Shown here piece by piece: positions 18,147 to 50,768 of a DNA stretch of 64,000 bases. Origin of the DNA: a virus. Positions within the stretch are counted from its first letter, which is position 1. Each line of letters begins with the position of its first letter. The position numbers and the translations under genes were made by a program. The stretch spans positions 1-64,000 of the IMG/VR virus record IMGVR_UViG_3300030339_000011, one strand, 5' to 3'. The notes beneath the pieces were generated by a model. That model was not told where the DNA came from. It made no database searches and saw only the letters and a list, made by a program, of their open reading frames with translations.

Positions 18147-18671
18147 ATGAATAGATTAAAAAGATTTGAATCATTTGGTGTGACAGATGATATTATACTT
18201 TCAATGACTGATAAATGTATTATTGATAATATTTTTTCGTCAAATGAAAGTATTTCTGAGTGGTGGAGTAAATTTATAGATTATGGTAAGAAAGGATTAT
18301 TGACTGCTACTATATTATTATCAATTGCTTTCTCATCTCAAGCACAGCAACAGAATAAATCAATGGATGTTATTAAGCAGGGTACTCAGATGATGCAATC
18401 AAATGATAAGAACAATGTTTATTCATTCTTTGTTGGAATATCAACAGAAAATTCTTCGTTGTCTATGAGAAATGGTGACATTGAATCTGCTGCAGGATTC
18501 AAAGAAATATCAAAATATTATGAAAATTTGAGAGATGGTAAAGATGCAGAAAAATTATCAATTAATGCAATTAAATGTATTAAAAAGATTAAAAATTTGT
18601 ATAATAAATTAGATAAAAACGACATTTCTAACTTTATTCAAAATGGTAAAAATTTACACACTATAGATTAA
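18147..18671 (+). CDS. Hypothetical secreted or membrane protein, 174 aa
   Basis: ORF track. Hydrophobic segment LLTATILLSIAFSSQAQQ. Confidence 0.5.
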   Translation: MNRLKRFESFGVTDDIILSMTDKCIIDNIFSSNESISEWWSKFIDYGKKGLLTATILLSIAFSSQAQQQNKSMDVIKQGTQMMQSNDKNNVYSFFVGISTENSSLSMRNGDIESAAGFKEISKYYENLRDGKDAEKLSINAIKCIKKIKNLYNKLDKNDISNFIQNGKNLHTID

Positions 18672-19041
18672 ATTTATTTGTTGAGAATCCTAAAATCAAA
18701 TCTAATTTGCTAATAACATGCCATGAGTCATATCCTGGTGATGAGTTACCAATTTTCATTTTATTTTTAAGTTCATCAATTTTCATTTCTCCATACAAAG
18801 AGCTTAATGACGGAGAATATTTAAAATTATTGCTAAGTAAAATATCAGTCTTTGATGAATTAGGATATCCATATATAATAATGGTGTCATGATTATCTTG
18901 AGTCATTTTATAGATATCATATTCTATTTGATTATCTTCTAATGTATTTATATTTGTCATTATATCATTACTATAATCATTGAATCTTCTATAATATATG
19001 TAATAATCAGTTTTTTTTTCAAATTCTTTTATATATTTCAT
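18661..19041 (-). CDS. famC protein (C2 body; MKYIKEFE ... NKFNL)
   Basis: ORF track. Conserved termini. Confidence 0.65.
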   Translation of the reverse strand: MKYIKEFEKKTDYYIYYRRFNDYSNDIMTNINTLEDNQIEYDIYKMTQDNHDTIIIYGYPNSSKTDILLSNNFKYSPSLSSLYGEMKIDELKNKMKIGNSSPGYDSWHVISKLDLILGFSTNKFNL

Positions 19042-19043
19042 TG

Positions 19044-19430
19044 TTATATGTTAAATTTATTGGACATTTTGACACTATCTATTAATTGATCAACATCTTC
19101 TATTTCAATTAAAGTCCAAAATTCAGAATTCAAAATAATTTCTTTTTCTTTTTCTAATTCATCAACTGAAAAAATATCATTATTTGTAGTAAAATTTATA
19201 CCTTTAAGAATGAAATCACTTTTTGATGATTCTAAATATGCATTTATGGCAAGAAAAATATCTTTTCCATTCATTATATAATAGAACATATCAAATTTTA
19301 TTTCAAATTTATTTAATCTTTGAATGTCACTATATAATCTAAGTTTAGATATATTATCTAATTGATAAGTTTTTACATATTTCTTAAACTTGTCATCATC
19401 TAAACTTTCATTAAATTTTTTTACTATCAT
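19044..19430 (-). CDS. famC protein (C2-like)
   Basis: MIVKKFNES ... SNKFNI. Confidence 0.6.
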   Translation of the reverse strand: MIVKKFNESLDDDKFKKYVKTYQLDNISKLRLYSDIQRLNKFEIKFDMFYYIMNGKDIFLAINAYLESSKSDFILKGINFTTNNDIFSVDELEKEKEIILNSEFWTLIEIEDVDQLIDSVKMSNKFNI

Positions 19431-19753
19431 AAATTAAATTTATTTGTTTGTAATATTAAAATTAAATCTTTCTTGTTTCTACTAAAATGATTTATTTCTT
19501 TTATGCTAAAAGGAAATGCTTCTTTATTTATTTTTGATGTGAACATTTCTAAATCTTTTAATAATTGTGGATCAAGATCATATTTTATGATATAAGGATA
19601 TTGAGCACCAAATGTGTCTACATAATCAATAATTTCTCCTATCATATCATGAATAAAAGAATTTAATCCACCTGTTTCATCAGTACATATGACAAAATCT
19701 CCAATTTCTGGCTTTCCTTCATCTAAACTTTCATTAAATCTTTCTACTTTCAT
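19427..19753 (-). CDS. famC protein (C1 body: PEIGDFVIC)
   Basis: MKVERFNES ... TNKFNL. Confidence 0.65.
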   Translation of the reverse strand: MKVERFNESLDEGKPEIGDFVICTDETGGLNSFIHDMIGEIIDYVDTFGAQYPYIIKYDLDPQLLKDLEMFTSKINKEAFPFSIKEINHFSRNKKDLILILQTNKFNL

Positions 19754-19754
19754 A

Positions 19755-20165
19755 TTATATATTAAATTTCATAGAATTTATAATAGTCTCTATCTCATCA
19801 AATTCAACTTCTGTCCATAAATCATGTTTATTAATTAAGGTATTCTTATAATTTTCGTCTTCATGTCTAAGAAAATCAAAGTTCATCTTATCAAGAACTA
19901 CTCTTTCTTCTATATTAATAGGAAATGCATATATTTTAAATGTGAAATGAGATGGTTCTATATGATCAAAATACTTATAGTATATAATGTTATCTATTTT
20001 GCAATTGTTTACTAGATATTCTGAGTCTTGCAATAAAAATTCTATATCATCATCATCATAAATGGAATATCTTTTGTAATAAACTTTAATCTGTACGTTA
20101 ATATCTTCATTAATATCTTCATTAATATCTTCATTATTATGTTCATTAAATTTGTTGATCCTCAT
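19755..20165 (-). CDS. famC protein (C2). Start moved to the internal MRINKFNE
   Basis: The track ORF (19755..20198) reads through the upstream KFNI-stop junction. The family start lies at the internal Met. Confidence 0.6.
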   Translation of the reverse strand: MRINKFNEHNNEDINEDINEDINVQIKVYYKRYSIYDDDDIEFLLQDSEYLVNNCKIDNIIYYKYFDHIEPSHFTFKIYAFPINIEERVVLDKMNFDFLRHEDENYKNTLINKHDLWTEVEFDEIETIINSMKFNI

Positions 20166-20166
20166 A

Positions 20167-20502
20167 TTATATGTTAAATTTTTGTGCTTGAATTTCAATT
20201 TTTAATTCTTCTTTTGTTAAAAATCTGCCATCTTTAATGTCTTTTACTTTTCTTTCTGTATCATAAACTTGAGATAAATTATAACCATTAGGAATATATA
20301 ACCCCATTAAATTACCAGGTATTCTAGCAAATATTCCTACAATAAATGAATTATTAGTTATTAATATATCATATTTTATTTTCAGATTATCAAATTTATT
20401 TAAATCTTTAATTATATCATCTATCGAATTATATTTTTCTCCATATAATTTATTATATATGAAAATATTTTCAACAGTATCATTAAATTTTAGTATTTTC
20501 AT
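20167..20502 (-). CDS. famC protein (C2)
   Basis: MKILKFNDT ... AQKFNI. Confidence 0.65.
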   Translation of the reverse strand: MKILKFNDTVENIFIYNKLYGEKYNSIDDIIKDLNKFDNLKIKYDILITNNSFIVGIFARIPGNLMGLYIPNGYNLSQVYDTERKVKDIKDGRFLTKEELKIEIQAQKFNI

Positions 20503-20503
20503 T

Positions 20504-20857
20504 TTATAAGTTAAATTTTCGTGCTTGTATTGTTGGTATAATATCTTCTTTCTTTATTAAATTTGAACTTCTACCTTTTCTTTTTTCTTCATATTCAGAT
20601 TCATTATCATAAATATCAGATGACTCAAAATCAATTGGTAGATTTTCTAATAAGAATTTTCCATCTAATTGAGCATATACTCCTAAGTAAATGTCTTTTT
20701 TATTTAATATGTATATATCATATTTTATGTTCTGTTTGTCTAATTTTTTCAAATCATTAAATACATCATCTATCTTATGATATTTTCCTTCTCCACTATA
20801 TAACTTATAATATATGTGAATTCTTTCGTTATTTTCATTGAATTTTAGTACTTTCAT
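20504..20857 (-). CDS. famC protein (C2). Start moved to MKVLKFNE
   Basis: Same junction logic as 19755..20165. Confidence 0.6.
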   Translation of the reverse strand: MKVLKFNENNERIHIYYKLYSGEGKYHKIDDVFNDLKKLDKQNIKYDIYILNKKDIYLGVYAQLDGKFLLENLPIDFESSDIYDNESEYEEKRKGRSSNLIKKEDIIPTIQARKFNL

Positions 20858-20858
20858 G

Positions 20859-21224
20859 TTATATGTTAAATTTATTTGCATTTAAAATTATTGGTATATC
20901 TTCTATTCTAATGATCTTATAACCAGCTCCTAAATACTCTTCTTCTATGTCTTCTTTACTTTTTGCTGATGATGAAATATATTCATATTTTAATATATTT
21001 CTTAAATGACAATCAGGATATATAAATATAAAAAAAACTCCAACTGTGTGATTATAAAGAAAGCTATAATCTACTTCATTCTTAGTTAATTCAACTAAGC
21101 AATTTAATAACACATTATATACATCATCAGTCTCAATATTAAATAACATATAATATATCTTATTTGGCTCATAAGTATTGTCTTCTGTATAAACAGAATT
21201 TTCATTAAATCTTTTTATATTCAT
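20859..21224 (-). CDS. famC protein (C2-like)
   Basis: MNIKRFNEN ... ANKFNI. Confidence 0.65.
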   Translation of the reverse strand: MNIKRFNENSVYTEDNTYEPNKIYYMLFNIETDDVYNVLLNCLVELTKNEVDYSFLYNHTVGVFFIFIYPDCHLRNILKYEYISSSAKSKEDIEEEYLGAGYKIIRIEDIPIILNANKFNI

Positions 21225-21225
21225 A

Positions 21226-21582
21226 TTAAATATTAAATTTGCTTGATTGAATTAATAATTCAATGTCATCTTTTTTTATAATTCTATTTCCTATGCGTAA
21301 TCTTGTTTCTATTATACCTTCTTTAGTTTCATTTTTGCTTATCATGAAATTTGGAATTGTAGAGTCCAGTTCATAATTTGTAAACGCGTATATTCTGAAG
21401 TAATTGAAATTTTTATTAAAATAAAAAATCACGTAATCTATTTTATATCTTTCTAATGATAATATATCAGAAGTTAAGTCCTCTAATTCATTTTCAATAA
21501 TATCATCAGGATTATCATTATACATATTATAATATGTATTTACTTTATTTTTATTTTCATTAAATTGTATATATGTTTTCAT
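21226..21582 (-). CDS. famC protein (C2)
   Basis: ...KIDYVIFYFNKNFNYFRIYAF...SSKFNI. Confidence 0.65.
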   Translation of the reverse strand: MKTYIQFNENKNKVNTYYNMYNDNPDDIIENELEDLTSDILSLERYKIDYVIFYFNKNFNYFRIYAFTNYELDSTIPNFMISKNETKEGIIETRLRIGNRIIKKDDIELLIQSSKFNI

Positions 21583-21900
21583 TTATAAGTTGAATTTTAT
21601 TGCGTTTAATATAGTTTCTAAATAAATTTTATTCTCACTATAGTATAAAATTTCTTCTCTATTGATCATGAATGAATTTTTATACTTTATAAGTGTCTCA
21701 TCTGTTATTTCTTTAATGTCTGGTATATTATCGTATTTTACTATGTATTCATACATCCCTCCGTTATCTATTTTTGTTAATACTCCAATATTATTTCTTG
21801 TGAATTCATTTATTTTAATATTTGAATGATATTCACATATTATATAATCACCTACTTTTATATCGTCAATTATATTTTCATATTTTTTTATATGCTTCAT
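21583..21900 (-). CDS. famC protein (C1)
   Basis: MKHIKKYEN..VGDYIICEY..VKYDNIPDI..AIKFNL. Confidence 0.65.
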   Translation of the reverse strand: MKHIKKYENIIDDIKVGDYIICEYHSNIKINEFTRNNIGVLTKIDNGGMYEYIVKYDNIPDIKEITDETLIKYKNSFMINREEILYYSENKIYLETILNAIKFNL

Positions 21901-22299
21901 TTATAAGTTGAATTTTTTCGCTCTCATTAAAAATATTATTTCATCCTTAGTTATTTTTAACCAATCCACATTTTTACGTAATTCTATGACTTTTTCCTTT
22001 GATAAATATCCAGAAAAATATGAATTGTCTATGAATTTTGATATTCTTATTTTTTCTCTATCATCAGGAAAGAAATTAATTCTTATAAATGAACCATTTG
22101 TCATGTCTTGATAATATATTACATAATCTATATTTGAATCTTCCAGTATTTTTATTTTCTCTATGACTTTGATTAATAATTTTTCATCATCAAATATAGA
22201 ATTTGATACTATCATAGTGTCAGAATGATAAGAACGTGGTTTAAATTTAGATTCATTAGATGATTCATTAAATGATAGATAAGAATTTATGTTATTCAT
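21901..22299 (-). CDS. famC protein (C2)
   Basis: ...NIDYVIYYQDMTNGSFIRINFF...AKKFNL. Confidence 0.65.
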   Translation of the reverse strand: MNNINSYLSFNESSNESKFKPRSYHSDTMIVSNSIFDDEKLLIKVIEKIKILEDSNIDYVIYYQDMTNGSFIRINFFPDDREKIRISKFIDNSYFSGYLSKEKVIELRKNVDWLKITKDEIIFLMRAKKFNL

Positions 22300-23267: not shown

Positions 23268-23510
23268 ATGAAACATTTAAAACAATTTGAAAATAAAAAA
23301 GAATTTGAAGTTGGAAATTATGTTCAAATAAATTATACAATAGGTAAAATTGTTGGAAGAATAATAGAAATTGACGGTAATGATGCAATTCTTGATACAA
23401 TTAATGGAATGAGAATTGTATTCTCATTCATTAACTATTTAGAAATAGCAAATAATAAACAAATAGAAATTTTTATAATGGAGAAAAATGCAAAAAAATT
23501 TAACTTATGA
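23268..23510 (+). CDS. famC protein (short C1-like; MKHLKQFE ... AKKFNL)
   Basis: Conserved termini. The overlapping minus ORF 23194..23400 is rejected. Confidence 0.6.
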   Translation: MKHLKQFENKKEFEVGNYVQINYTIGKIVGRIIEIDGNDAILDTINGMRIVFSFINYLEIANNKQIEIFIMEKNAKKFNL

Positions 23511-23839
23511 AACATTTAAAAATATATGAAGGTTATAATATGCCAGAAATAGGAGATTATGTCATATGTGATATAACTCCTGGACAATATGATGAATTTA
23601 GAGAACTTAAAGATTTTCTTATTGTTAATATAGGATTAATAATTTATGCTCCTAAATATTCAGATGAGTATGACTATGTTATAAGTTTTGATAATTTACC
23701 TAAAAATCTTGATTCTATGTTTGGCTCTAATACAAAAAATGGAAGAGGATTGAAATTCTCAATCGATGAGATTAAACATTTTAGTAAAGATAAGGAAAAA
23801 ATGAAGATTATACTATCATCAAATAAATTTAATATTTAA
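23507..23839 (+). CDS. famC protein (C1)
   Basis: MKHLKIYE..PEIGDYVICD..SFDNLP..SSNKFNI. Confidence 0.65.
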   Translation: MKHLKIYEGYNMPEIGDYVICDITPGQYDEFRELKDFLIVNIGLIIYAPKYSDEYDYVISFDNLPKNLDSMFGSNTKNGRGLKFSIDEIKHFSKDKEKMKIILSSNKFNI

Positions 23840-23840
23840 T

Positions 23841-24467
23841 ATGAAATACATTAAAAAATTTGAAAGTTCAATTAAAAAAATGATTTTGATTGGCGAAAAT
23901 TTGACTGAGTTGCCTGAATTACCAGATACTCTTATGAAATTGCAATGTTCTGATAATAAATTGACATCATTATCTAATTTACCTAATACATTAAATGAAA
24001 TATATTGTAACAATAATATGATAATTGAAATTTCTAAATTACCAGAATTTTTAACTGATTTTGCTTGCTCATATAATAAATTAAAAAAATTGCCAAATTT
24101 GCCTAATACATTAAAAGAACTTTTTTGCTGTGATAATAAACTAACAGAATTACCTATTCTGCCAGATAACTTAAGAATTCTTAGCTGTGATAATAATAAT
24201 TTAAATGAATTACCGATTTTACCAAAAAAATTAACATTATTATCTTGCTCTGGAAACAATTTAGAGAAATTGCCTGAATTACCAGATGGCTTATTGGATT
24301 TATATTGTTATAATAATAATTTAAAAGAATTACCTATATTACCAATTACATTGAAATCGTTGGCTTGTTCTGGTAATAATTTACCATATACTAATTTAAA
24401 AGAATATGATGAGTGGTTAGAAATAAATCATCCTGATATTTTTATGACTAGAAAATTTAACATATAA
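23841..24467 (+). CDS. famC LRR protein (YopM/IpaH-type 20-residue LPxLPxxLxxLxCxxNxL repeats, ~8 repeats)
   Basis: MKYIKKFES ... TRKFNI. LRR consensus visible throughout. Confidence 0.75.
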   Translation: MKYIKKFESSIKKMILIGENLTELPELPDTLMKLQCSDNKLTSLSNLPNTLNEIYCNNNMIIEISKLPEFLTDFACSYNKLKKLPNLPNTLKELFCCDNKLTELPILPDNLRILSCDNNNLNELPILPKKLTLLSCSGNNLEKLPELPDGLLDLYCYNNNLKELPILPITLKSLACSGNNLPYTNLKEYDEWLEINHPDIFMTRKFNI

Positions 24468-24468
24468 T

Positions 24469-25035
24469 ATGAAATACATTAAAAAATTTGAAAATTCAAA
24501 TATAGAATTGAATGATAATCATAAAAATTTAACTATATTGCATAAATTACCAAGAAATTTAGTAAAATTGGAATGCTCAGATAATAAATTGATTAATTTA
24601 CCTACGTTACCAAAAACATTAGAATATTTAGATTGTTCTGGTAATAAATTAATTAAATTGCCTGATATACCAGATTCCTGTAAAAAATTGTATTGTTATA
24701 ATAATAAATTAACTAAGTTGCCTAAATTGTCACAGAATTTAAAAATTATATCTTGCGCAGACAATAAATTAACAGAATTATCAGAGTTACCTGAATCATT
24801 AGATAAATTATATTGTGGTGAAAATAAATTGACAACTTTACCTAATTTACCAAGCAAATTAACTGTATTGTCTTGTAGATTTAATAAATTAACTGAGTTG
24901 CCTATTTTACCAGAAACAATAACAACATTGTATTGTGAAGGAAATGATTTAGGATATTCTGATTTGGATGGTTATTATGATTGGCTGGAAATTAATCATC
25001 CTGAAGTAGTTGATGCAAGTAAATTCAATATATAA
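24469..25035 (+). CDS. famC LRR protein
   Basis: MKYIKKFEN ... ASKFNI. 1-nt spacer from the upstream gene. Confidence 0.75.
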   Translation: MKYIKKFENSNIELNDNHKNLTILHKLPRNLVKLECSDNKLINLPTLPKTLEYLDCSGNKLIKLPDIPDSCKKLYCYNNKLTKLPKLSQNLKIISCADNKLTELSELPESLDKLYCGENKLTTLPNLPSKLTVLSCRFNKLTELPILPETITTLYCEGNDLGYSDLDGYYDWLEINHPEVVDASKFNI

Positions 25036-25038
25036 AAA

Positions 25039-25434
25039 TTATAAATTGAATTTGTCTGCTGTTAATATCATTTCTAATTCTTCAATTGTTTTACCAAATG
25101 CTTTTATATTTGTTTCATTTAGATGAATAACCTTATTTTTTTTAGAACCTAAATTAAAATAATCCCTAATTATATCTGGAATATTTTCATATTCAAAATA
25201 ATTTGATATTTCAGGATGTTTGTTTGATATGTCATATGATACATAATATGTTCTTAAAGTCTTTCCGTTTACTACTACTTTTCCTCCATAATTTCTTATT
25301 CTACCAATATTATTAGTTAAAAAGTCATAAATATCTCCTCCTAAATTGTAATTACTATTATCATATTCAAAAATAATATAATCATTTATTTTTGGCTCAT
25401 TATTTGTGTTTTCATTGAATCTTTCTATTTTCAT
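25039..25434 (-). CDS. famC protein (C1). Start moved to MKIERFNEN
   Basis: The track ORF (25039..25500) reads through the junction. Body has YENIPDII and ends TADKFNL. Confidence 0.6.
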   Translation of the reverse strand: MKIERFNENTNNEPKINDYIIFEYDNSNYNLGGDIYDFLTNNIGRIRNYGGKVVVNGKTLRTYYVSYDISNKHPEISNYFEYENIPDIIRDYFNLGSKKNKVIHLNETNIKAFGKTIEELEMILTADKFNL

Positions 25435-25436
25435 TA

Positions 25437-25754
25437 TTATATGTTGAATTTTCTGGATTGTAAAATAGTTTCTAAATCTTCTATGTTGTCTGACCAACAT
25501 AATATTTCTTTCCTTGAAAAAGTAGTTGTACCTTTATTGAAATATTTTTCTGTATCTTCTGGTATGTTTTCATATTGAACTACAAATGGATATTTATCTC
25601 CTCTATTAAATTCTATGCAAATACCAATATGACTATTAACAAAAGTTCTAGATTTAAATGCTCCAACGTAATCATTAGATAAAATGTATTCTCCTACCAT
25701 TGGAAAGTCTTTTTTATCAGACATTAATTTTTCAAACTCCTTTATATACTTCAT
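25437..25754 (-). CDS. famC protein (C1)
   Basis: MKYIKEFEK ... YENIPED ... SRKFNI. Confidence 0.65.
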   Translation of the reverse strand: MKYIKEFEKLMSDKKDFPMVGEYILSNDYVGAFKSRTFVNSHIGICIEFNRGDKYPFVVQYENIPEDTEKYFNKGTTTFSRKEILCWSDNIEDLETILQSRKFNI

Positions 25755-25756
25755 TG

Positions 25757-26101
25757 TTATAAGTTGAATTTATTTGTTTTTACTATATATTTTATCTTCT
25801 CCAAATCATCTCTTTTTATTTGAGTATATCCATTATTAGGTAGATTATTTTTTATGTCTTCTATGCTTGCAAATGATGAATTATCAAAATATCCTACTAA
25901 TAAATCTATTTTTGGCGTTCTTTTAAAATATATGAAAATTTCATATGTATTATCATGAGAATATATATAATGTTTTATTCTATTTTTTTCTAAATCATTT
26001 AAATCACGTATTAAAACTAACTCATCCTCTTTGCTATCTAAATTATAATTTTGGTAGTAGATATCAAATTCCCTACCTTCATTGAATCTTTCAATTTTCA
26101 T
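25757..26101 (-). CDS. famC protein (C2)
   Basis: MKIERFNEG ... NRIKHYIYSHDNTYEIFIYF ... TNKFNL. Confidence 0.65.
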   Translation of the reverse strand: MKIERFNEGREFDIYYQNYNLDSKEDELVLIRDLNDLEKNRIKHYIYSHDNTYEIFIYFKRTPKIDLLVGYFDNSSFASIEDIKNNLPNNGYTQIKRDDLEKIKYIVKTNKFNL

Positions 26102-26457
26102 TATAATGTATTATTATTTTCACTATTTCTTATTGATTCTAATTCATTTTTATTGTCCCCCCAATATCTAATCTCACCGTTGAATGCATAAATTTCCTTG
26201 ATATCATTATCAGATTCATAGTCACCATAAACATCATCAATATAGCTGTAATTTATAGTATAAAGAACTTCATATTTTTTAATAGAATTATTGTTACCTC
26301 TATTTATTTTTTTATTTTGGTCGTCAATATTTGTTATTAATCCAATAGAATCATTTATATTCTTTTTGTCATGACGGTTATTTACATTTAGTAATACATA
26401 ATTGCCTATCTCAGGCTCTCCATTGTTCAAACTCTCATTAAATCTTTTAACTCTCAT
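26101..26457 (-). CDS. famC-like protein (C1 N-terminus; lacks the KFNI terminus)
   Basis: MRVKRFNESLNNGEPEIGNYVLLN...; ends SENNNTL. Confidence 0.55.
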   Translation of the reverse strand: MRVKRFNESLNNGEPEIGNYVLLNVNNRHDKKNINDSIGLITNIDDQNKKINRGNNNSIKKYEVLYTINYSYIDDVYGDYESDNDIKEIYAFNGEIRYWGDNKNELESIRNSENNNTL

Positions 26458-26459
26458 TA

Positions 26460-26801: not shown

Positions 26802-26803
26802 TG

Positions 26804-27510: not shown

Positions 27511-27512
27511 AA

Positions 27513-27875: not shown

Positions 27876-27877
27876 AT

Positions 27878-28255: not shown

Positions 28256-28257
28256 AA

Positions 28258-40872: not shown

Positions 40873-40933
40873 TAATATTTTTATTTCTATATATTAAAAA
40901 ACTCAGTTAAAATTAATTAACTGAGTTAGTTTA

Positions 40934-43423: not shown

Positions 43424-44110
43424 TTAAATATTAAATTTGCTCATATCACCAACCTCAGGCTGATTCTCACTCATCCATTTTTTATAACCATCTAAATCAT
43501 CATAAGGCAAATTATTACCATCACAATCTAAATATAATAATGATGAAGGTAATATAGGTAATGTTTTTAAATTGTTGTTAGAACATTTTAAATCCTTTAA
43601 GCCCTCAGATAAATAAGGTAAGGATGATAACTCATTGTTCTTGCAATCTAATATTTTTAATCCATCAGGTAAAGTAGGCAATGAAGTTAAAAAATTATCA
43701 AAACAATGTAACTCTATTAATCCATCAGGTAAAGTAGGTAATGAAATCAATTTATTGTCCCTACAATATATCTCCCTTATATTCTTAGGTAAATTAGGTA
43801 ATGAATATATTTCATTATTAGAACAATCTAAATATATTAATCTATCAGGTAAAGTAGGTAATGATGTTAAATGATTTTTTGAACAACATAACTCTAATAA
43901 TCTGTCAGGTAACTCTGGTAATGAATCTAATAAATTACCCCTACAATCTAAATCTTCTAATGTACTTGGTAACTTAGGTAACTCTGTTAATATGTTATAT
44001 TTACATGATAAATTTGTTAATCCTTCTTGTAAATCTGGTAACTTACCTAATTTTTTTATATCACAAATTAACGTTTGTTCAATACCCTCAAACTTCTTTA
44101 TATATTTCAT
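43424..44110 (-). CDS. famC LRR protein. Start moved to MKYIKKFEG
   Basis: The track ORF (43424..44140) reads upstream. ATGA overlap with the GNAT gene. ~9 repeats; ends MSKFNI. Confidence 0.7.
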   Translation of the reverse strand: MKYIKKFEGIEQTLICDIKKLGKLPDLQEGLTNLSCKYNILTELPKLPSTLEDLDCRGNLLDSLPELPDRLLELCCSKNHLTSLPTLPDRLIYLDCSNNEIYSLPNLPKNIREIYCRDNKLISLPTLPDGLIELHCFDNFLTSLPTLPDGLKILDCKNNELSSLPYLSEGLKDLKCSNNNLKTLPILPSSLLYLDCDGNNLPYDDLDGYKKWMSENQPEVGDMSKFNI

Positions 44111-44520
44111 GATTTTAGTTTTTTTATTAAGATGAAACATGAATCCTTATCAGTATCATCTTTATTCATTTTATCAGAATCTTGAAACACTTTGAACCCA
44201 CAACCTAAATATAATTTTACAGCACCTTCATTATTTTTAAATACAAGTAATGTGATAATATCAATACCAAGATCATCTTTAATATAATCAAACATCTGAT
44301 TTAGTAAGTATTTAGCATACCCTTTTCTCTTAAATCTATTAACAGTCCTTAAATTAAATATTGTAATATACTCGTCCTTAAACCATTTATCTGGTTTTTC
44401 TATCCTATATTCAGTCTCAGATACTAATATATCATCTAAAAATAACTGAAATTTATTATTAGTCTTGTCAATTATAAAGGTTTTTTCTTCTTTCTTCTCA
44501 TAACTTTTTATATACTTCAT
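44107..44520 (-). CDS. GNAT-family N-acetyltransferase with a famC-type N-terminus (MKYIKSYEKK)
   Basis: Motif A/B-like RFKRKGYAKYLLNQMFDYI ... AVKLYLGCGFKV. Confidence 0.6.
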   Translation of the reverse strand: MKYIKSYEKKEEKTFIIDKTNNKFQLFLDDILVSETEYRIEKPDKWFKDEYITIFNLRTVNRFKRKGYAKYLLNQMFDYIKDDLGIDIITLLVFKNNEGAVKLYLGCGFKVFQDSDKMNKDDTDKDSCFILIKKLKS

Positions 44521-44522
44521 GA

Positions 44523-44924
44523 TTATATGTTAAATTTATTTACATCAATAAACATCTGATATCCTTTTGTGTCAAATGATAAATCATCTGGTAGATTATC
44601 TAAATTTATTATATGTAATATACTATTATTAATAAGACTACTAGAAAGATTTTTTGATTCATGATATATATTAGACTCAATATAATCAAATAATCCTGGA
44701 TATCTATAAATAAATTCAGGAGTAGCAAATATTCTACCATCTTTATCAACTTGATTTATCTTAAATATTGTCTGATTACGGTCATTACACATATTTATAT
44801 CATTATAAGGCAAACTTTGAATATTAATATAATCTCCATCCTTTTTAATCAATTCTAAAAAATCATGTAATCTATTAAAAAAAATATTCTGAGACATTGT
44901 TTCAAATTTCTTTATATACTTCAT
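44523..44924 (-). CDS. famC protein with a unique body (MKYIKKFETMS ... VNKFNI)
   Basis: ORF track. Conserved termini. Confidence 0.6.
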   Translation of the reverse strand: MKYIKKFETMSQNIFFNRLHDFLELIKKDGDYINIQSLPYNDINMCNDRNQTIFKINQVDKDGRIFATPEFIYRYPGLFDYIESNIYHESKNLSSSLINNSILHIINLDNLPDDLSFDTKGYQMFIDVNKFNI

Positions 44925-44926
44925 AG

Positions 44927-45427
44927 TTATATGTTAAATTTATTTGCAGAATACTTCTCTGGAAATTCTTTAAAATCCTTATAACCATCTAAGTTATTAT
45001 AAGGTAAATTATTACCATAACAATATAACCTCTCTAATGAATCAGGTAACTCTGGTAATTCAGATATATTATTGCTCTCACAATCTAAATATTTTAATGT
45101 ATTAGGTAATTTAGGCAATGATGTTAATTCATTACTTGTACAAAACAATTCCTCTAATGTATCAGGTAACTCAGGCAACTCACTTATTTTATTATAACAA
45201 CAATCTAAGCCAATTAATTTAGTAGGTATCTCTGGTAATTTCGTTAATTTATTACTAGAACAATTTAAATTTTTTAATGTAACAGGTAACTTTGGTAACG
45301 TAGTTAAATCATTACCAAGACAATTTAAATTTAATAATGTACTAGGCAACTTCGGTAACTTACTCAATCCTTTTTGAAAACAATTTAATGTTGTTACTAT
45401 GCCCTCAAACTCCTTTATATACTTCAT
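44927..45427 (-). CDS. famC LRR protein, 166 aa
   Basis: MKYIKEFEG ... ANKFNI. Confidence 0.75.
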   Translation of the reverse strand: MKYIKEFEGIVTTLNCFQKGLSKLPKLPSTLLNLNCLGNDLTTLPKLPVTLKNLNCSSNKLTKLPEIPTKLIGLDCCYNKISELPELPDTLEELFCTSNELTSLPKLPNTLKYLDCESNNISELPELPDSLERLYCYGNNLPYNNLDGYKDFKEFPEKYSANKFNI

Positions 45428-45429
45428 AA

Positions 45430-45747
45430 TTAAATATTAAATTTTGTTGCACAAACTGATAACATATATTTATTTTTCTCCTCATCTGTAGCATCTTTTG
45501 TTATTTTATTTATATTAGACCTTTTGATTTGTATGTAACCATCACTTAACGTATTGAAATTAACATCTTTTGATTTTATCTCATATGTATCACCAATATA
45601 ATTACAAAAATAATCATAAAATTCATAATTTAAAGAATTAGTCTTAGATAACCTTAATTTACCTATCGCTCTGAAATCTTTATAATTATAACTAAATATA
45701 TCATCAAATGATTTTACTATACCCTCAAACTCCTTTATATACTTCAT
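45430..45747 (-). CDS. famC protein with a unique body (MKYIKEFEGIV ... CATKFNI)
   Basis: ORF track. Confidence 0.6.
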   Translation of the reverse strand: MKYIKEFEGIVKSFDDIFSYNYKDFRAIGKLRLSKTNSLNYEFYDYFCNYIGDTYEIKSKDVNFNTLSDGYIQIKRSNINKITKDATDEEKNKYMLSVCATKFNI

Positions 45748-45749
45748 GA

Positions 45750-46337
45750 TTAAATATTAAATTTTCTTGATTGAAAAATATCAGGCTGATTTATCTCTAA
45801 CCATTCATTATATTCTTTCAAATTTTTATATGGTAAATTATTACCGCCACAATCTAAATATTCTAATGTATAATGCAATAATGGTAACTCACTTAAATTG
45901 TTATCATGACAATCCAATTCTTTTAATGATAATGGTAATATAGGTAGAGAAGTTAAATTATTTTTATAACAACTTAATTTTATTAATGTACTTGGTAATT
46001 TAGGTAACTCAGTCAATTCGTTTTTATAACAATTAAATTTTATTAATGTATCAGGTAATTCAGGTAACTCAGTTAATTTATTATTACTACAAAATAATAC
46101 TTCTAATCCATCAGGTAAAGTTGGTAAAGAGTATAATAAATTTTTACCACAATATAACTCTTTTAATGTATCAGGCAACTCTGTAAACTCACTTATCTTA
46201 TTTCCACTACAATACAATTTCTCTAATGTATCTGACAACTCAGGTAACTCTGTTATGCCTTCTCCAAAACTTGTATTAGTTAATTTTAAGATATTGTCTT
46301 CGTTCTCTATATGTTCAAACTTTTTTATATACTTCAT
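45750..46337 (-). CDS. famC LRR protein, 195 aa
   Basis: MKYIKKFEH ... SRKFNI. Confidence 0.75.
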   Translation of the reverse strand: MKYIKKFEHIENEDNILKLTNTSFGEGITELPELSDTLEKLYCSGNKISEFTELPDTLKELYCGKNLLYSLPTLPDGLEVLFCSNNKLTELPELPDTLIKFNCYKNELTELPKLPSTLIKLSCYKNNLTSLPILPLSLKELDCHDNNLSELPLLHYTLEYLDCGGNNLPYKNLKEYNEWLEINQPDIFQSRKFNI

Positions 46338-46339
46338 TG

Positions 46340-46858
46340 CTATATGTTAAATTTATTTGCTCCACCAATCTCAGGATGATTTTCTTCTAACCACTTCTTA
46401 TATCCAATTAAATCATTATAAGGTAAATTGTTCCTTGAACATGTTAATGTTCGTAATGTATTAGGTAATAAAGGCAACTCACTCAAATTGTTATCCTGAC
46501 AATATAACTCCTTTAATCCATCAGGTAAAATAGGTAACTCACTTAATTTATTATCAGCACACGATAATATAAATAATGTATCAGGTAACTTTGGTAACTC
46601 AATTAATTCATTTTCATAACAATATAATATCTCTAATCCATCAGGTAGATTTGGTAATCTCTCTAATCTGTTCCTTGTACAATCTAAATATCTTAATGTA
46701 TCAGGTAACTTAGGTAATGTATGTAAATTGTTAAGAGAACAACGTAACTTCTCTAATGTATCAGGTAAATTAGTTAAATCATTAATATTTTCATCATTAC
46801 AATCTAAATCTGTAACAATACTCTCAAATTTCTTATTAAATCTCTTTATATACTTCAT
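46340..46858 (-). CDS. famC LRR protein, 172 aa
   Basis: MKYIKRFNK ... ANKFNI. Confidence 0.75.
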   Translation of the reverse strand: MKYIKRFNKKFESIVTDLDCNDENINDLTNLPDTLEKLRCSLNNLHTLPKLPDTLRYLDCTRNRLERLPNLPDGLEILYCYENELIELPKLPDTLFILSCADNKLSELPILPDGLKELYCQDNNLSELPLLPNTLRTLTCSRNNLPYNDLIGYKKWLEENHPEIGGANKFNI

Positions 46859-46860
46859 AG

Positions 46861-47310
46861 TTATATGTTAAATTTATTAGCTGCATACTTCTCTGGAAAT
46901 TCTTTCCAATCATTATAACTATCCAAATCATAATATGGAAAATCATTTCCTCCACAATCTAAATTCTCTAATGATGCAGGCAAATCAGGTAATGAATTTA
47001 ACTTATTATTAGAACAATCTAATATCCTTAATCCTTCAGGTAACTTTGGTAAATATTTTAATTTGTTGTTGTAACAATATAATATCTCTAATGTATTAGG
47101 TAACTTCGGCAATGACATTAAATAATTACTGTTGCAATATAATGTCTTCAAATTGATAGGCAACTCAGGTAATTCATTTAAATAATTATCATTGCAATAT
47201 AATGTAACCAATCCATTAGGTAAATCAGGTAATACAGTTAAATAAGATTTAGAATAATCTAATGGCATTATCAAAATTTTTATCTTCTCAAAACTCTTTA
47301 TATACTTCAT
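46861..47310 (-). CDS. famC LRR protein, 149 aa
   Basis: MKYIKSFEK ... ANKFNI. Confidence 0.75.
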   Translation of the reverse strand: MKYIKSFEKIKILIMPLDYSKSYLTVLPDLPNGLVTLYCNDNYLNELPELPINLKTLYCNSNYLMSLPKLPNTLEILYCYNNKLKYLPKLPEGLRILDCSNNKLNSLPDLPASLENLDCGGNDFPYYDLDSYNDWKEFPEKYAANKFNI

Positions 47311-47312
47311 TG

Positions 47313-47753
47313 TTATATGTTAAATTTTTTAGCCATTCCCTGAGGAGTTTTAGAATACCAAAATTTATATCCATCTAAATCCTCATAAGGTAAATTGTTA
47401 CCACCACAATGTAATATACTTAAATTTTCAGGCAACTCAGGCAAATCACTTAATTTATTGTTAGAACAATATAACATTTTCAATGTATTAGGCAACTTAG
47501 GTAATGACGTTAATTCATTATTAGTACAATATAATTCTTTTAATTCAATAGGTAACTCAGGCAACTCTGTTAAATAATTAAAATTGCAAACTATATTCTC
47601 TAATGTATCAGGTAATATAGGTAACTCAGTTAATTTATTACGATGACAACGCAATGTTATCAAATTATTAGGCAACTTAGGTAATTTTGTTAACTGTTGA
47701 TCAGAACATTCAAAATCTGTAACTCTACTCTCAAACCTCTTTATATACTTCAT
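47313..47753 (-). CDS. famC LRR protein, 146 aa
   Basis: MKYIKRFES ... AKKFNI. Confidence 0.75.
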   Translation of the reverse strand: MKYIKRFESRVTDFECSDQQLTKLPKLPNNLITLRCHRNKLTELPILPDTLENIVCNFNYLTELPELPIELKELYCTNNELTSLPKLPNTLKMLYCSNNKLSDLPELPENLSILHCGGNNLPYEDLDGYKFWYSKTPQGMAKKFNI

Positions 47754-47755
47754 TG

Positions 47756-48136
47756 TTATATGTTAAATTTATTAGCTGAATAAGACTCAGGAGATTCTTT
47801 CCATTCCTTATACTCTCTCAAGTTATTATAAGGCAAATAATTACCATCACATTCTAAAAATTCTAATCCTATCGGTAAATTAGGTAACTCCCTTAACTTA
47901 TTATCAGAACAATCTAAATATTGTAATGTATCAGGTAACTCTGGTAATGAAGTTAAATAATTACCACTACAATATAATAAATCTAATGCATCTGGTAACT
48001 TAGGTAACTCTGTTAATTCATTATAATTACAATTCAAATAAGTTAATGTATCAGGTAACACTGGTAATATTTTTAAATTACTACTAGATAAATCTAACTC
48101 TGTTACTGTACTATCAAATCTCTTTATATACTTCAT
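47756..48136 (-). CDS. famC LRR protein, 126 aa
   Basis: MKYIKRFDS ... ANKFNI. Confidence 0.75.
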   Translation of the reverse strand: MKYIKRFDSTVTELDLSSSNLKILPVLPDTLTYLNCNYNELTELPKLPDALDLLYCSGNYLTSLPELPDTLQYLDCSDNKLRELPNLPIGLEFLECDGNYLPYNNLREYKEWKESPESYSANKFNI

Positions 48137-48138
48137 TG

Positions 48139-48525
48139 TTATATGTTAAATTTTTTACCATTACTAACCTCAGGATGATTTACTTCTAACCATCTATTAT
48201 ATTCTCTTAAATTGTTATAAGGTAATTTGTTACCACTGCAATTAAAATCTATTAATGAATTAGGTAATATAGGTAACTCTCTTAATCTGTTATCACTAAT
48301 ATCTAAATATAGTAAATTATAAGGTAAATTAGGTAAAGAATCTAAATTGTTAGATTGACAATATAATTCTTCTAATGTTATAGGTAACTCTGACAACTCT
48401 GTTAAATTATTATAAGAACAATTTAAATATTCTAAATTTTCAGGTAAATGCGGCAACTCAATTAAATGCTCATTAGAACAATCTAATGATATAATAGTAT
48501 GCTCAAACTTTTTAATGTATCTCAT
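48139..48525 (-). CDS. famC LRR protein. Start moved to MRYIKKFEH
   Basis: Track ORF is 48139..48567. Ends GKKFNI. Confidence 0.7.
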   Translation of the reverse strand: MRYIKKFEHTIISLDCSNEHLIELPHLPENLEYLNCSYNNLTELSELPITLEELYCQSNNLDSLPNLPYNLLYLDISDNRLRELPILPNSLIDFNCSGNKLPYNNLREYNRWLEVNHPEVSNGKKFNI

Positions 48526-48595
48526 AACATTATATATTATTTTATAAATGCCATAAATCTTAATCAATCATAATTTTAAACAAAAAATAACAAAT

Positions 48596-48635
48596 GTGAC
48601 CACAAATGTTACTTTAACCCTCACCGAAGTTTTAA
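48596..48635 (-). promoter_or_regulatory. Conserved GC-rich upstream element GTGACCACAAA...TTTMMCCCTCACCGAAGTTTTAA (shown on the plus strand)
   Basis: Near-identical copies at 49244-49296, 50428-50480 and 50777-50802. Each lies upstream of a minus-strand LRR or famC gene. Confidence 0.5.
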
Positions 48636-48636
48636 T

Positions 48637-49215
48637 CTATATGTTGTATTTTCTACTATTAATAACCTCAGGATGATTAATAGAAAGCCAATCATTATAA
48701 CCATCCAAACCATCATAAGGTAAATTATTATGATCACAAACTAAATATAGTAATGACTTAGGTAAATTTAATGGTAACTCACGTAAATCATTATAAGAAC
48801 ATTCTAATAACTCTAACGTATCAGGTAACTCTGGTAACTCACTTATGTTATTCTCAGAACAATTTAACTTGATTAATCCATTAGGTAATGTAGACAAACT
48901 TTTTAATTTGTTGTCAGAACAAAATATGTATTTTAATCCTTCAGTTAAGCCAGATAAATCTTCTAACCTGTTGCTGTTGCAATTTAAATAATCTAATGAA
49001 ATAGGTAACTCAGGTAACTTAGTTAATCTGTTGTTAAAAAAACTTAAATTTACTAATCCATCAGGTAAGCCAGATATTGTAGTCAATCTGTTGTTATAAC
49101 AAAACAAATTTATTAATGTACTAGGTAACTCTGGTAATACCTCTAAACCCTTATCACTTAAATCTAACTCTGTTATTGGAATAATAAATTTCTCAAACTG
49201 CTTTACATGCTTCAT
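48637..49215 (-). CDS. famC LRR protein, 192 aa (MKHVKQFEK ... SRKYNI)
   Basis: ORF track. Confidence 0.75.
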   Translation of the reverse strand: MKHVKQFEKFIIPITELDLSDKGLEVLPELPSTLINLFCYNNRLTTISGLPDGLVNLSFFNNRLTKLPELPISLDYLNCNSNRLEDLSGLTEGLKYIFCSDNKLKSLSTLPNGLIKLNCSENNISELPELPDTLELLECSYNDLRELPLNLPKSLLYLVCDHNNLPYDGLDGYNDWLSINHPEVINSRKYNI

Positions 49216-49306
49216 AATCTATATGTATTTTTTTAATAACAAGTGTGACCACAAAAAATCAATAAAATGTTACTTTCTCCCTCACCGAAGTTTTAAAATA
49301 TCTAAA

Positions 49307-49816
49307 CTATATACTAAATTTAGAAGCAGCATATACATCTGGATGATTCTCCTTTATCCATCTCCTGTAACCATGTATATTATTATAAGGTAATCCATTA
49401 CCATCACAATATAAATATTCTAATGAAGAAGGTAAATGTAAAGGCAACTCAGTTAATTTATTGTTATTACACGTCAATTCAATTAATGACTCTGGTAATA
49501 TAGGCAGTGAAGTTAAATTGTTATCATCACATCCTAAATATTCTAATCCATTAGGTAAATTAGGTAACTCACTTAATCCATTACCATTACAACCTAAATC
49601 AACTAATGTATCAGGTAATTCAGGTAACGAACTTAAATTATTATGATCACAATATAAAACTGTTAAACCATTAGGTAACTCTGGTAACTCCTTTAATCTA
49701 TTACCACTACACCTTAACTCCCTTAATTCATTAGGTAAATCAGGTAATACCTCTAAATTCCTTAAAGATACATTTATATCTGTAACCATACTCTCAAACT
49801 GCTTAATATGCTTCAT
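49307..49816 (-). CDS. famC LRR protein, 169 aa (MKHIKQFES ... ASKFSI)
   Basis: ORF track. Confidence 0.75.
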   Translation of the reverse strand: MKHIKQFESMVTDINVSLRNLEVLPDLPNELRELRCSGNRLKELPELPNGLTVLYCDHNNLSSLPELPDTLVDLGCNGNGLSELPNLPNGLEYLGCDDNNLTSLPILPESLIELTCNNNKLTELPLHLPSSLEYLYCDGNGLPYNNIHGYRRWIKENHPDVYAASKFSI

Positions 49817-49819
49817 AAA

Positions 49820-50326
49820 CTATATGTTAAATTTTCTACTATTAAATACCTCAGGATGATGTATTGACATCCAATGATTATAACTATTCAAATCCTTATA
49901 AGGTAACCCATTACCACTACAATTTAAAATTCTTAATCCATTAGGTAATATAGGCAATGACTTTAATAAATTACCTGTACAATATAACTCCTTTAAACCC
50001 TCAGGTAAATTAGGTAACTCCATTAAATTGTTGTCAGAACAATATAACTCCCTTAATCCATCAGGCAACTTAGGTAACGATGTTAATTCATTTATACTGC
50101 AATATAAATATACTAATGATTCAGGTAACTCTGGTAATGATACTAATTTATTACTACCACAATATATTGTAATTAAACCATTAGGTAAAGTAGGTAATGA
50201 TACCAATAAATTGCTGTTGCACTCCAATGTCTCTATAGTAGAAGGCAAATCAGGTAATAATTCTAAATCCTTGTGAGAATATACTAATTTCCTAACTATC
50301 TCTTCATTTACTTTTAAATGCTTCAT
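49820..50326 (-). CDS. famC LRR protein. Start moved to MKHLKVNEE
   Basis: Track ORF is 49820..50374. Ends SRKFNI. Confidence 0.7.
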   Translation of the reverse strand: MKHLKVNEEIVRKLVYSHKDLELLPDLPSTIETLECNSNLLVSLPTLPNGLITIYCGSNKLVSLPELPESLVYLYCSINELTSLPKLPDGLRELYCSDNNLMELPNLPEGLKELYCTGNLLKSLPILPNGLRILNCSGNGLPYKDLNSYNHWMSIHHPEVFNSRKFNI

Positions 50327-50489
50327 AATATTATATATTAATCTAAAATACCCCAAAATAACAACCCAACACAATTAGAGACGCATTCCAATAAATTCAC
50401 TTAATATCAATATGTTAAACGATAACCGTGACCACAAAATAACCAAAAATATTCACTTTCTCCCTCACCGAAGTTTTAAATAATTAATG

Positions 50490-50768
50490 CTATATGTTAA
50501 ATTTCATAGAATTAAGTATAACCTCTATTGATTCTAAATTATTAGAATAATGCTTTATGTCCTGTAAATTGCAATAATACCTCTCTATTCCAATATAAAA
50601 ATATAAAAGATGATATAAACCATCAGAAATTGATGTTATCTTACCAAAGTTGTTTGATATGAAATTTATTTCATCATCTCCATTACCTATATATTCACCA
50701 TAACATATAACATAATCTCCTACCTGCGGTATATTCTCAGTCATTTCAATTTCCATTTCAATTTCCAT
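50490..50768 (-). CDS. famC protein (C1; PQVGDYVICYGEY ... SMKFNI). The start may be the internal MTENIP at 50744
   Basis: ORF track. The N-terminal MEIEMEIEM arises from a short tandem DNA repeat. Confidence 0.55.
   Translation of the reverse strand: MEIEMEIEMTENIPQVGDYVICYGEYIGNGDDEINFISNNFGKITSISDGLYHLLYFYIGIERYYCNLQDIKHYSNNLESIEVILNSMKFNI

Follow-up and report, generated by a model that had tools for sequence, protein, structure and literature searches.

In a 64,000-nucleotide stretch of viral DNA (IMG/VR record IMGVR_UViG_3300030339_000011, positions 1 to 64,000, referred to here as the window), we found a family of 59 genes whose products carry short conserved peptides at both ends, an eight-residue N-terminal tag (N-tag) and a four-residue C-terminal tag (C-tag) of the form KFN[IL], around bodies of unrelated folds. 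These tags are conserved as amino acids and recur in several genomes, and the genes that carry them share an upstream motif with fibre-like genes and turn over as cassettes. We tentatively propose that the termini are portable sorting tags acting at the protein level. They would mark binding or effector proteins that are made late, most likely so that these are loaded into the virion. Most genes of huge phages have no known function; here 23.9 kb, or 37% of the 64 kb, becomes readable as one system, and comparable arrays occur in several other phage genomes of 0.2-0.7 Mb.

Census of the tagged family

A mechanical six-frame scan of the window returned 56 open reading frames (ORFs) ending in [KR][FY][NS][ILVM]-stop, and the end is exactly KFN[IL] in 51 of them, against about 0.01 expected by chance from the amino-acid frequencies of the family. 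The C-terminus described in an initial sequence-only reading of this DNA is thus confirmed. Three further genes have the N-terminus with a decayed C-terminus and complete the set of 59: 26101-26457 (ending ..NNNTL), the ankyrin gene 29638-30090 (..AKKNI) and the GNAT gene 44107-44520 (..KKLKS). The sequence-only reading had placed an array of about 80 such genes at 18661-50768. The array stands, but its size was overestimated: 54 members lie inside that interval, together with non-members at 22396-23136, 30795-32188 and 32617-33006 and three fibre genes at 37087-43333. Isolated tagged genes that had been noted at 23268, 32297, 51589, 54030 and 55999 are all genuine, and additional members were found at 23507-25035, 51852 and 56265.

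The N-terminus had been given as a single motif, MK[YH]IKxFE. Its length of eight residues holds, but the strict form occurs on only 19 genes and three flavours can be distinguished: M-[KR]-[YH]-[ILV]-K-x-[FY]-E in 30 genes, M-K-[IV]-x-[KR]-F-N-[ED] in 17 and MITxF..E in two. The two main flavours, found together in 47 of the 59 members, each comprise eight residues with a final Glu and are offset from each other by about one codon. Two homologs of the C1 body type described below, P0028 and P0063, have bodies that are 82% identical and N-flavours that differ, which indicates that the flavours interconvert or are exchanged. The members are mostly acidic, with a median isoelectric point (pI) of about 5. 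A recoded stop codon was ruled out, as members end in TAA, TGA and TAG, and so was a signal peptide, as the N-tag is polar.

The genes are tightly packed. Among the 46 same-strand junctions there are 11 ATGA overlaps and 33 gaps of -1 to +3 nt, and the junction 15-mer AAATTTAACATATAA occurs 33 times at no more than one mismatch where 0.53 occurrences are expected.

Unrelated bodies between shared termini

With the termini removed, BLAST sorted the bodies into C1 (21 genes), leucine-rich repeat (LRR; 19 genes), C2-like groups and singletons (12 genes), the pair 54030/55999, an ankyrin, a GNAT and unique bodies. The cores of C1, C2 and LRR align to one another with hhalign probabilities below 3%. 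In full-length comparisons of C1 with C2, the match is confined to the last 16 columns (hhalign probability 88%, E 3.5e-6), corresponding to a shared C-terminal strand-helix (..EIxYWSKNKEELELILKSNKFNI vs ..IxKEDIExIIxSNKFNI). The suggestion that the bodies are unrelated between the termini therefore holds for the cores, which have no profile similarity, but needs correction at the C-terminal end, where C1 and C2 share 16 columns and not four. Profile-profile comparison detects no homology among these three cores, contrary to what a single diverged family would give.

Structure prediction likewise separated the two small body types. C1 is predicted to form an SH3-like barrel and C2 a ferredoxin/ACT-like fold, the C2 AlphaFold model being built on 14 sequences with a confidence score (pLDDT) of 68.6. 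At the N-terminus, pLDDT falls below 50 for residues 1-6 in C1 and 1-10 in C2, and the N-tag is modelled in both as a disordered, free peptide; its Glu8 is kept in at least 90% of 118 C1 sequences. The C-tag closes the terminal helix in both models.

The 19 LRR members (124-249 aa) are built from units of 20-22 residues with the pattern LPxLPxxLxxLxxxxNxL (Pfam LRR_4, E 3e-17), and their matches among Protein Data Bank structures (phmmer) include YopM (4ow2, E 1.7e-79), SspH2 (E 4.6e-46) and IpaH7.8 (E 2.2e-27). After the LRR part, only ..LPYxxLxxYxxW..NHPEVxxAxKFNI follows; no NEL E3 ubiquitin-ligase domain, or any further Pfam domain, was detected in these members. The ankyrin and GNAT bodies have clear Pfam matches, and the small bodies have none in Pfam or PHROGs. 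Overall, K[FY]N[IL]-COOH terminates at least five folds in the window, and 51 tagged proteins of relatives, for which no Pfam match was found, fall into 30 BLAST-unrelated clusters. Attachment to unrelated bodies implies that the termini are kept for a reason independent of the fold.

Selection on the termini

Synonymous codon usage in the N-tag is at least as mixed as in the bodies, with AAA/AAG at 15:15 versus 80:20, TAT/TAC at 17:7 versus 92:8 and GAA/GAG at 15:13 versus 70:30. Twenty-five ortholog pairs could be compared with a syntenic relative (L001; JGI 3300029983, a 235-kb contig), at a body identity of 59%. Nucleotide identity is higher in the tags, both at codon positions 1+2 (0.94 in the last four codons and 0.83 in the first eight, 0.76 in the bodies) and at codon position 3 (0.79, 0.73 and 0.61, respectively). 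Restricted to identical residues of the same kinds, the comparison gives no consistent excess of identical codons in the tags over the bodies, and by this measure the notion that the termini are more conserved than the bodies at the DNA level did not hold up. KFN[IL] is retained by every run-end gene, where no further gene follows; in one such pair, 24469 (AAATTCAATATATAA) and its L001 counterpart at 11064 (AAATTTAACATTTAA), the C-tag DNA has three synonymous differences.

Judged from these comparisons, maintenance of the termini by protein-level selection is the favoured explanation. The sequence-only reading had offered two purposes, a protein-level signal and DNA-level recombination handles; the varied N-tag codons, together with the different C-tag DNA of relatives described below, favour the former and speak against handles as the selected purpose.

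Gene map and shared upstream motif

The tagged genes and associated features of the window are as follows.

18661..22299 (-): run 1, ten head-to-tail tagged genes (eight C2-type, two C1-type), from ORFs, termini and body clustering
23268..25035 (+): run 2, four tagged genes (one small unique body, one C1, two LRR), from ORFs and termini; TATATATAG lies 3 nt upstream of the ATG of the first gene
25039..30747 (-): run 3, sixteen tagged genes, C1 and C2 interleaved plus the ankyrin gene 29638-30090, from ORFs, Pfam and termini; AATATATAA lies 4 nt upstream of the first gene (30421-30747)
32297..32611 (+): single tagged C1 gene; AATATATAA 4 nt before the ATG
33006-33041: 16-bp bidirectional terminator-like hairpin, one arm of which is the KFNL codons of the last gene of the following run
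33023..34019 (-): three tagged C1 genes
34113..37006 (-): five tagged YopM/IpaH-type LRR genes, immediately downstream of fibre genes; ahead of the run, the hairpin 37051-37078 and then AATATATAC 4 nt before the ATG
37087..43333 (-): three fibre-like structural genes inside the LRR block, from Pfam and repeats
43424..50326 (-): fourteen tagged genes (eleven LRR, GNAT 44107-44520, unique bodies 44523-44924 and 45430-45747) on the same strand as the fibre genes and directly upstream of them; internal restarts at 48139 and 49820, with AATATATAA 4 nt before the ATG
50490..50768 (-): tagged C1 gene with a degenerate N-terminus (MEIEMEIEMTE) and KFNI intact
51589..52142 (+): two tagged C1 genes (MITIFKTFE, MKYIKTFE) with an ATGA overlap; AATATATAG 4 nt upstream of the first
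54030..54284 (-): small tagged gene with KVGDCVIS in its body, SH3-like by eye; AATATATAC 4 nt upstream
55999..56831 (+): two tagged genes, a paralog of 54030 and then an LRR gene; AATATATAA 4 nt upstream of the first
18147..18671 (+): gene with an N-tag-like start only (MNRLKRFESF), without KFNI; promoter-like motif 23 nt upstream
52172..52492 (+): gene with an N-tag-like start only (MNHIKKLNEF) and an acidic body; TATATATAA 16 nt upstream
55316..55330 (-): non-coding AAATTTAATATATAA, 12 nt upstream of gene 54302-55303; reads ..VIKFNI-stop in frame

The motif [AT]ATATATA[AGC] connects the tagged family with structural genes. It precedes all five fibre-like genes at a distance of 14-15 nt, 54302 and the two genes with N-tag-like starts (18147 and 52172) at 12-23 nt, and 10-11 first-in-run tagged genes at only 3-5 nt from the ATG, a spacing which suggests that the latter are near-leaderless. 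The motif is absent upstream of all 30 genes at 563-17836. In a distant relative (L004, below), the first array gene is preceded by ATATATATAATT-ATG. A sigma-70 promoter scan of the window gave no enrichment (237 vs 231 expected), and the window-wide count of TAATATATA is also not enriched (24 vs 19 expected), so that the motif is informative only by its position relative to gene starts. Three of the fibre genes (37087..43333) are flanked by LRR runs on the same strand, and each is preceded by a hairpin and then [AT]ATATATAG 14-15 nt before the ATG; a T4 gp9/10 N-terminal domain is present in one and a Fib_succ_major domain in another, and NSIGSNF-type repeats occur in all three. We infer from this arrangement that a phage-specific promoter type drives the family along with structural (late) genes, and the shared motif suggests that its proteins are probably made late.

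In a terminator and hairpin scan, hairpins were confined to the spaces between fibre genes and the ends of runs (33006-33041, 37051-37078, 38998-39025, 40900-40927), and the 46 family junctions contained no hairpin or inverted repeat. Three of these sites (37051-37078, 38998-39025 and 40900-40927) are identical, each an 11-bp-stem hairpin AACTCAGTTAATTAATTTTAACTGAGTT followed by TTTTAATATATAG; situated between fibre genes and before an LRR run, this unit looks like a terminator-plus-promoter cassette and recalls the promoter/stem-loop cassettes of T4-type phages. The fourth hairpin, at 33006-33041, lies between convergent genes, and the KFNL codons of 33023-33358 form part of it as AAGTTCAACTTATAA. 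Both codons and hairpin are unchanged in the L001 ortholog (~4174-4203), and the C-tag DNA at 33023-33358 is therefore also constrained by the terminator-like structure.

The fibre-like genes themselves all contain long stretches of degenerate NSIGSNF-type repeats of ~8 residues. Those at 37087-38970 and 39034-40872 (-) are near-duplicates with identical 45-nt upstream regions. Others lie at 59773-63550 (+), where a family-25 glycosyltransferase gene (61286-61900) sits between two of them.

Relatives and turnover of the array

The window derives from an uncultured huge bacteriophage of the Mahaphage kind. Its G+C content is given as 22-25% and, in a wider range, as 19-30%, and no tRNA genes were found in it. 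An origin from a giant virus was ruled out by the presence of a phage baseplate domain and by the closest relatives, which are huge phages. One gene at 7965-10424 (-) encodes an 819-residue phage protein with the domains of the major vault protein (MVP), namely the MVP shoulder (E 9e-28), a Vault_3 repeat (E 8e-9) and SPFH/Band 7. The only GenBank matches to this protein are three uncultured huge-phage records at 50-53% identity, LR756500 (462 kb) and LR756501/LR756503 (735 kb), and the gene is kept in all of these related huge phages examined. We take these accessions to be part of the huge-phage set of Al-Shayeb et al. All of the largest huge-phage genomes fall in the Mahaphage clade, with Bacteroidetes as predicted hosts (PMC7162821). 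A Bacteroidetes-type TAnnTTTG box lies 18-23 nt upstream of the start in a few genes of the window, in place of [AT]ATATATA[AGC], and the host of this phage is probably a member of the Bacteroidetes.

A profile search identified 257 C1 homologs, nearly all metagenomic and on contigs of up to 711 kb, that keep MK[YH][IL]K.[FY]E, MK.x[KR]FNE or MITxF..E at the start and K[FY]N[IL] at the end. The relatives include a 531-kb contig (L004) with a seven-gene tagged array and a 286-kb contig (L006) with at least 39 consecutive tagged genes, nearly all ending in KYNL; L006 encodes this as AAA TAT AAT TTA, where the window uses AAA TTT AAC ATA. Among GenBank phages there were no C1 relatives, and the LRR search gave one weak match, to two Vibrio phages. 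A C2 profile search found six proteins, mostly from this genome, and a search of IMG/VR returned neither the junction DNA nor relatives.

The huge-phage genome LR756500 carries a related system with a different C-terminus. Twenty-five of its 625 ORFs start with MK[YF]I[KLQ]xY[EK][ED]F, in varied codons and behind ordinary leaders of 10-25 nt; 13 of the N-tagged proteins share another C-terminus, NADDFG[FL][FLI](DN), that is neither AT-rich nor promoter-like. This ending is similar to the tail of the ribosomal stalk P-proteins (DDDMGFGLFD) or to the acidic tail of SSB. Among the N-tagged proteins, which had no match in PHROGs, are a DUF2201 metallopeptidase-VWA protein, an ATP-grasp protein, a PNK 3'-phosphatase and LRRs of another type; they are encoded in loci L008-L016, at 11706-17016, 124308-125087, 180972-181730, 197835-201793, 254760-271250, 312960-332545 and 411169-411819. 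LR756500 yielded no homologs of the fibre genes, which precludes replicating the promoter link in that genome. The N-tag is thus common to huge-phage lineages and the C-tag is lineage-specific (KFNI/KYNL here, NADDFGFFDN in LR756500), which suggests that the two tags probably bind different partners.

Comparison with L001, in which orthologs are 40-89% identical, shows how the array changes. Whole-gene differences fall exactly at the junctions: three genes at 19044-20165 of the window are missing in L001, L001 has extra sequence at 14550-15222, and between the orthologs of 28883 and 28258 there is one C1 gene in the window and two different genes in L001. The L001 ortholog of the ankyrin gene keeps DKFNI. 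Cassette gain, loss and replacement at the junctions, as anticipated in the sequence-only reading, are real. Unequal recombination between the junction repeats (15-40 nt) would give the array its form as a by-product and not as the selected function; because conservation tracks the amino acids, we treat cassette turnover as a consequence of the repeats and not as their purpose.

Proposed function and alternatives

The proposed sorting system would work as follows. The N-tag, modelled as disordered, is a peptide of about eight residues that has conserved aromatics and terminates in Glu (M-K-[YH]-[IL]-K-x-[FY]-E or M-K-[IV]-x-[KR]-F-N-E), and the C-tag, K-[FY]-N-[IL]-COOH, closes a terminal helix. 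Both are attached to a large, fast-evolving set of small proteins, which comprises a few enzymes (GNAT) and many binding modules of the YopM-type LRR, ankyrin, SH3-like and ferredoxin-like kinds. By docking to a common assembly partner, the tags would bring these proteins into the virion. The prohead protease may then remove the N-tag by cutting after its Glu, and the cargo would enter the next host along with the DNA. The timing of expression, the loading, the cleavage and the delivery are the steps that we infer. If the proteins are indeed loaded into virions, sequence alone would identify injected proteins, candidate anti-defence or host-takeover effectors that include YopM-type LRRs; a minimal tag of 8 + 4 residues could package foreign proteins, and the capsid-targeting principle of T4 would extend, in bipartite form, to a distant clade.

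Several points weigh against virion loading. The residues before Glu do not fit L/I-x-E, the position two before it being K/x or F, and the one three before it is not Leu/Ile, in contrast to T4; the C-tag lacks a Glu and has no known counterpart; and the members are mostly acidic. The late timing is drawn only from the motif common to the fibre-like genes, and AT-rich TATA-like motifs are early in some jumbo phages. Cargo such as the PNK phosphatase and the ATP-grasp protein could equally act in the producing cell. The C-tag is also under a nucleotide-level constraint, seen in its Asn codon and in the likeness of KFNI-stop DNA to the promoter-like motif, as detailed below.

The tags might instead dock the proteins to a partner outside the virion, such as a phage-built compartment or shell, a shared hub or enzyme, or a host protease. 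This reading, which we consider possible if on balance unlikely, draws on the identical protein-level evidence. LRR, ankyrin and SH3-like bodies are adaptor-type binding modules, and in LR756500 the N-tag alone is found on cytoplasmic-type enzymes. A hub would receive its targets from the variable binding domains, in the manner of the F-box/PRANC motifs on poxvirus ankyrin proteins. With regard to a protease, N-termini of the Met-basic-hydrophobic-hydrophobic type and C-termini with a basic and then hydrophobic residues resemble the ClpX recognition classes N-M2 and C-M2; however, building some 60 proteins for degradation would be wasteful. The MVP-like gene, 8 kb away and conserved in the related huge phages examined, encodes a vault-like shell protein, which is unusual in phages and a conceivable tag partner, but this link is a co-occurrence in a few related genomes only. 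The promoter type common to the fibre genes fits association with the virion better.

A broader reading, speculative and in our judgement improbable as it stands, would see in this clade a combinatorial code of terminal tags, in which an N-tag common to the clade, MKYIK.[FY]E, combines with C-tags that differ by lineage and can be swapped (K[FY]N[IL], NADDFGFFDN, perhaps also ..Y.RK.KL..L) to sort dozens to hundreds of unrelated proteins to the particle or to a phage-built compartment. The tagged LRR, ankyrin and SH3-like arrays might then represent a deliverable effector arsenal. Such a code, if it exists, would amount to a protein-targeting system encoded by the phage, with no described precedent in scale or design.

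A different type of explanation, and quite an unlikely one, holds that the junction is primarily a DNA or RNA element (a promoter, a device for translational coupling or initiation, or a recombination handle) of which the conserved amino acids are only the translation. With genes 0-3 nt apart or overlapping at ATGA, the 3' end of a gene must carry the signals of the next one, and 48 of the 56 final codons end in A, which permits NNA-TGA overlaps; the F/Y and I/L exchanges in the C-tag are single T/A changes. On this view the opening codons would serve near-leaderless mRNAs as their initiation region, and the repeats would double as recombination handles in the way of the promoter/stem-loop cassettes of T4-type phages. 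The element AAATTTAAYATATAA is nearly identical to the non-coding motif upstream of 54302 and resembles that upstream of fibre and first-in-run genes, and the C-tag DNA written with AAT is AAATTTAATATATAA, identical to that non-coding motif; the latter (55316..55330) may be either a decayed C-tag that is now a promoter-like motif or the source of the resemblance. The hairpin-plus-promoter cassettes between fibre genes and the whole-gene indels at junctions point in the same direction. A further indication comes from the Asn codon of the C-tag, which is AAC in 39 of 55 members (71%; e.g. 19044-19058 and 47313-47327) versus 12% in bodies (p = 1e-23), and in 21 of 35 (60%, p = 3e-11) in L001. This bias is a real nucleotide-level constraint on the C-tag, and may be tied to the identity of AAT-form tag DNA with the promoter-like motif. 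A simple rule of avoiding TATATA fails to explain it, as AAC is preferred before Leu codons too and L006 uses AAT throughout.

The balance of evidence nevertheless argues for selection on the protein. Synonymous sites in the N-tag are saturated while its amino acids are kept, and where residues are identical the tags show no consistent surplus of shared codons. The N-tag of LR756500 follows ordinary, varied leaders, and the C-tag of that genome is richer in G+C and unlike a promoter. Terminal genes all keep KFN[IL] with nothing downstream, AAC use does not differ between internal and terminal members (Fisher p = 0.27), L006 has AAT in 39 of 39 KYNL tags, and the family junctions lack an inverted repeat or hairpin. 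The AAC bias and the likeness between C-tag and promoter-like DNA make the family well suited to studying how protein and regulatory codes can overlap and coexist in very compact gene arrays.

Descent of all members from a single very diverged lineage, or a role of the termini as a structural clasp for folding, is very improbable and largely refuted by the fold assignments: C1 and C2 do share the 16-residue C-terminal strand-helix, whose helix packs on the domain with good confidence in both models, and many bodies of relatives have a GDYV-like SH3 signature, but LRR, ankyrin, GNAT, SH3-like and ferredoxin-like folds cannot be homologous, the cores give no hhalign signal, the N-tag is modelled as disordered and outside the fold, the ends of an LRR solenoid lie at opposite poles, and the tagged proteins of relatives form many BLAST-unrelated clusters.

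Comparison with known systems

The closest parallel to sorting into the virion is the capsid-targeting sequence (CTS) of phage T4, borne by the internal proteins IPI, IPII and IPIII and by Alt. The first 10 residues of the CTS suffice for packaging, with residues 4 and 7 (Tyr, Phe) involved in targeting and 8 and 10 in processing; cleavage by the prohead protease follows Glu, and Alt has propeptides at both ends (PMC9026906). The internal proteins of T-even phages are diverse anti-defence proteins that have only the CTS in common (PMC3012670). As in T4, where IPII and IPIII start with MKTYQEFIAE, a short N-terminal peptide with M-K, Tyr/Phe residues 3-4 positions apart and a terminal Glu precedes otherwise unrelated proteins, the cargo is diverse and fast-evolving, and the genes lie alongside late or structural genes. 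Four features would fit the T4 pattern, namely a putatively free N-tag with M-K, Tyr3, Phe7 and Glu8, cargo that may act in the cell, a fibre-type promoter, and a large family with fast turnover. The systems differ in that sequence homology was not detected (Pfam, PHROGs), MKTYQEFIAE and MKYIKKFE sharing a pattern only, and in that the window has a tag of eight residues and not 10, an additional C-terminal tag, about 59 tandem genes compared with 3-10, and acidic members.

Large families of small proteins with variable copy number are also known from phages with very big capsids. In SPN3US, 20 paralogous head proteins make up family B, and the N-terminal propeptides of giant phages are thought to target proteins to the prohead (PMC5694885). 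Family B and the inner-body proteins of phiKZ are true paralogs with homologous bodies and propeptides of more than 100 residues, whereas the bodies here are unrelated and share 4-16 residues. Short terminal peptides on unrelated cargo are likewise a feature of encapsulins. The encapsulin loading peptide binds the inside of an HK97-fold shell. The system described here differs in being bipartite and phage-encoded, and its motif differs from known encapsulin loading peptides; no Pfam match to an encapsulin shell gene was found among the 10 non-family ORFs scanned.

The LRR bodies are close relatives of YopM, SspH and IpaH, in which this LRR type is the target-binding part of effectors injected by enterobacteria. 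The tagged LRR proteins differ by their short length, by the lack of a NEL domain and of a type III secretion context, and by the presence of phage tags. The promoter/stem-loop (PeSL) cassettes of T4-type phages are mobile regulatory cassettes. Such cassette arrays resemble the present one in having repeated short DNA at gene boundaries and modular gain and loss of small genes, but hairpins are missing from the family junctions, and the repeated DNA is itself coding, with a conservation that tracks the amino acids and not the nucleotides. A literature search found no description of these motifs or of a bipartite tag family, and the huge-phage paper (PMC7162821) mentions no such families.

Other gene families of the window

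A second terminal tag system was observed on small genes with differing bodies that end in ..[ED][YF][LIR]R[KN]xK[LI]xx[LI].. (examples are IENYLRKKKLEKL, EYRKNKLLEIEKC and ELRKQKLKELE). It occurs at 12021-15511 and 17549-17836 (-) and at 3527-6534 (+) of the window and recurs in the distant relatives L006 (304-5639) and L004 (3616-7793). In another family, MLKVGDKVVCID, at 3998-5000 (+), adjacent genes overlap by 7 nt (ATGTTAA), so that the ..EKC-stop closing one gene is locked to the Met-Leu-Lys with which its neighbour begins. This is a coupling of termini at the DNA level, unlike that of the KFNI family.

Two stretches of ~0.7-0.8 kb each, 55304-55998 and 50769-51588, have no intact ORF, and the first contains a decayed ..VKFNI remnant at 55910-55924 in which the stop codon is missing; together they point to gene decay within the array region. 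Finally, 30795-32188, 52530-53898 and 58164-59356 (-) hold another multigene family of eight members that start with M(N/D).. and carry a TAnnTTTG box 18 nt upstream of 52997 and 39 nt upstream of 31691. These boxes suggest early transcription by the host polymerase, in contrast to the tagged family.

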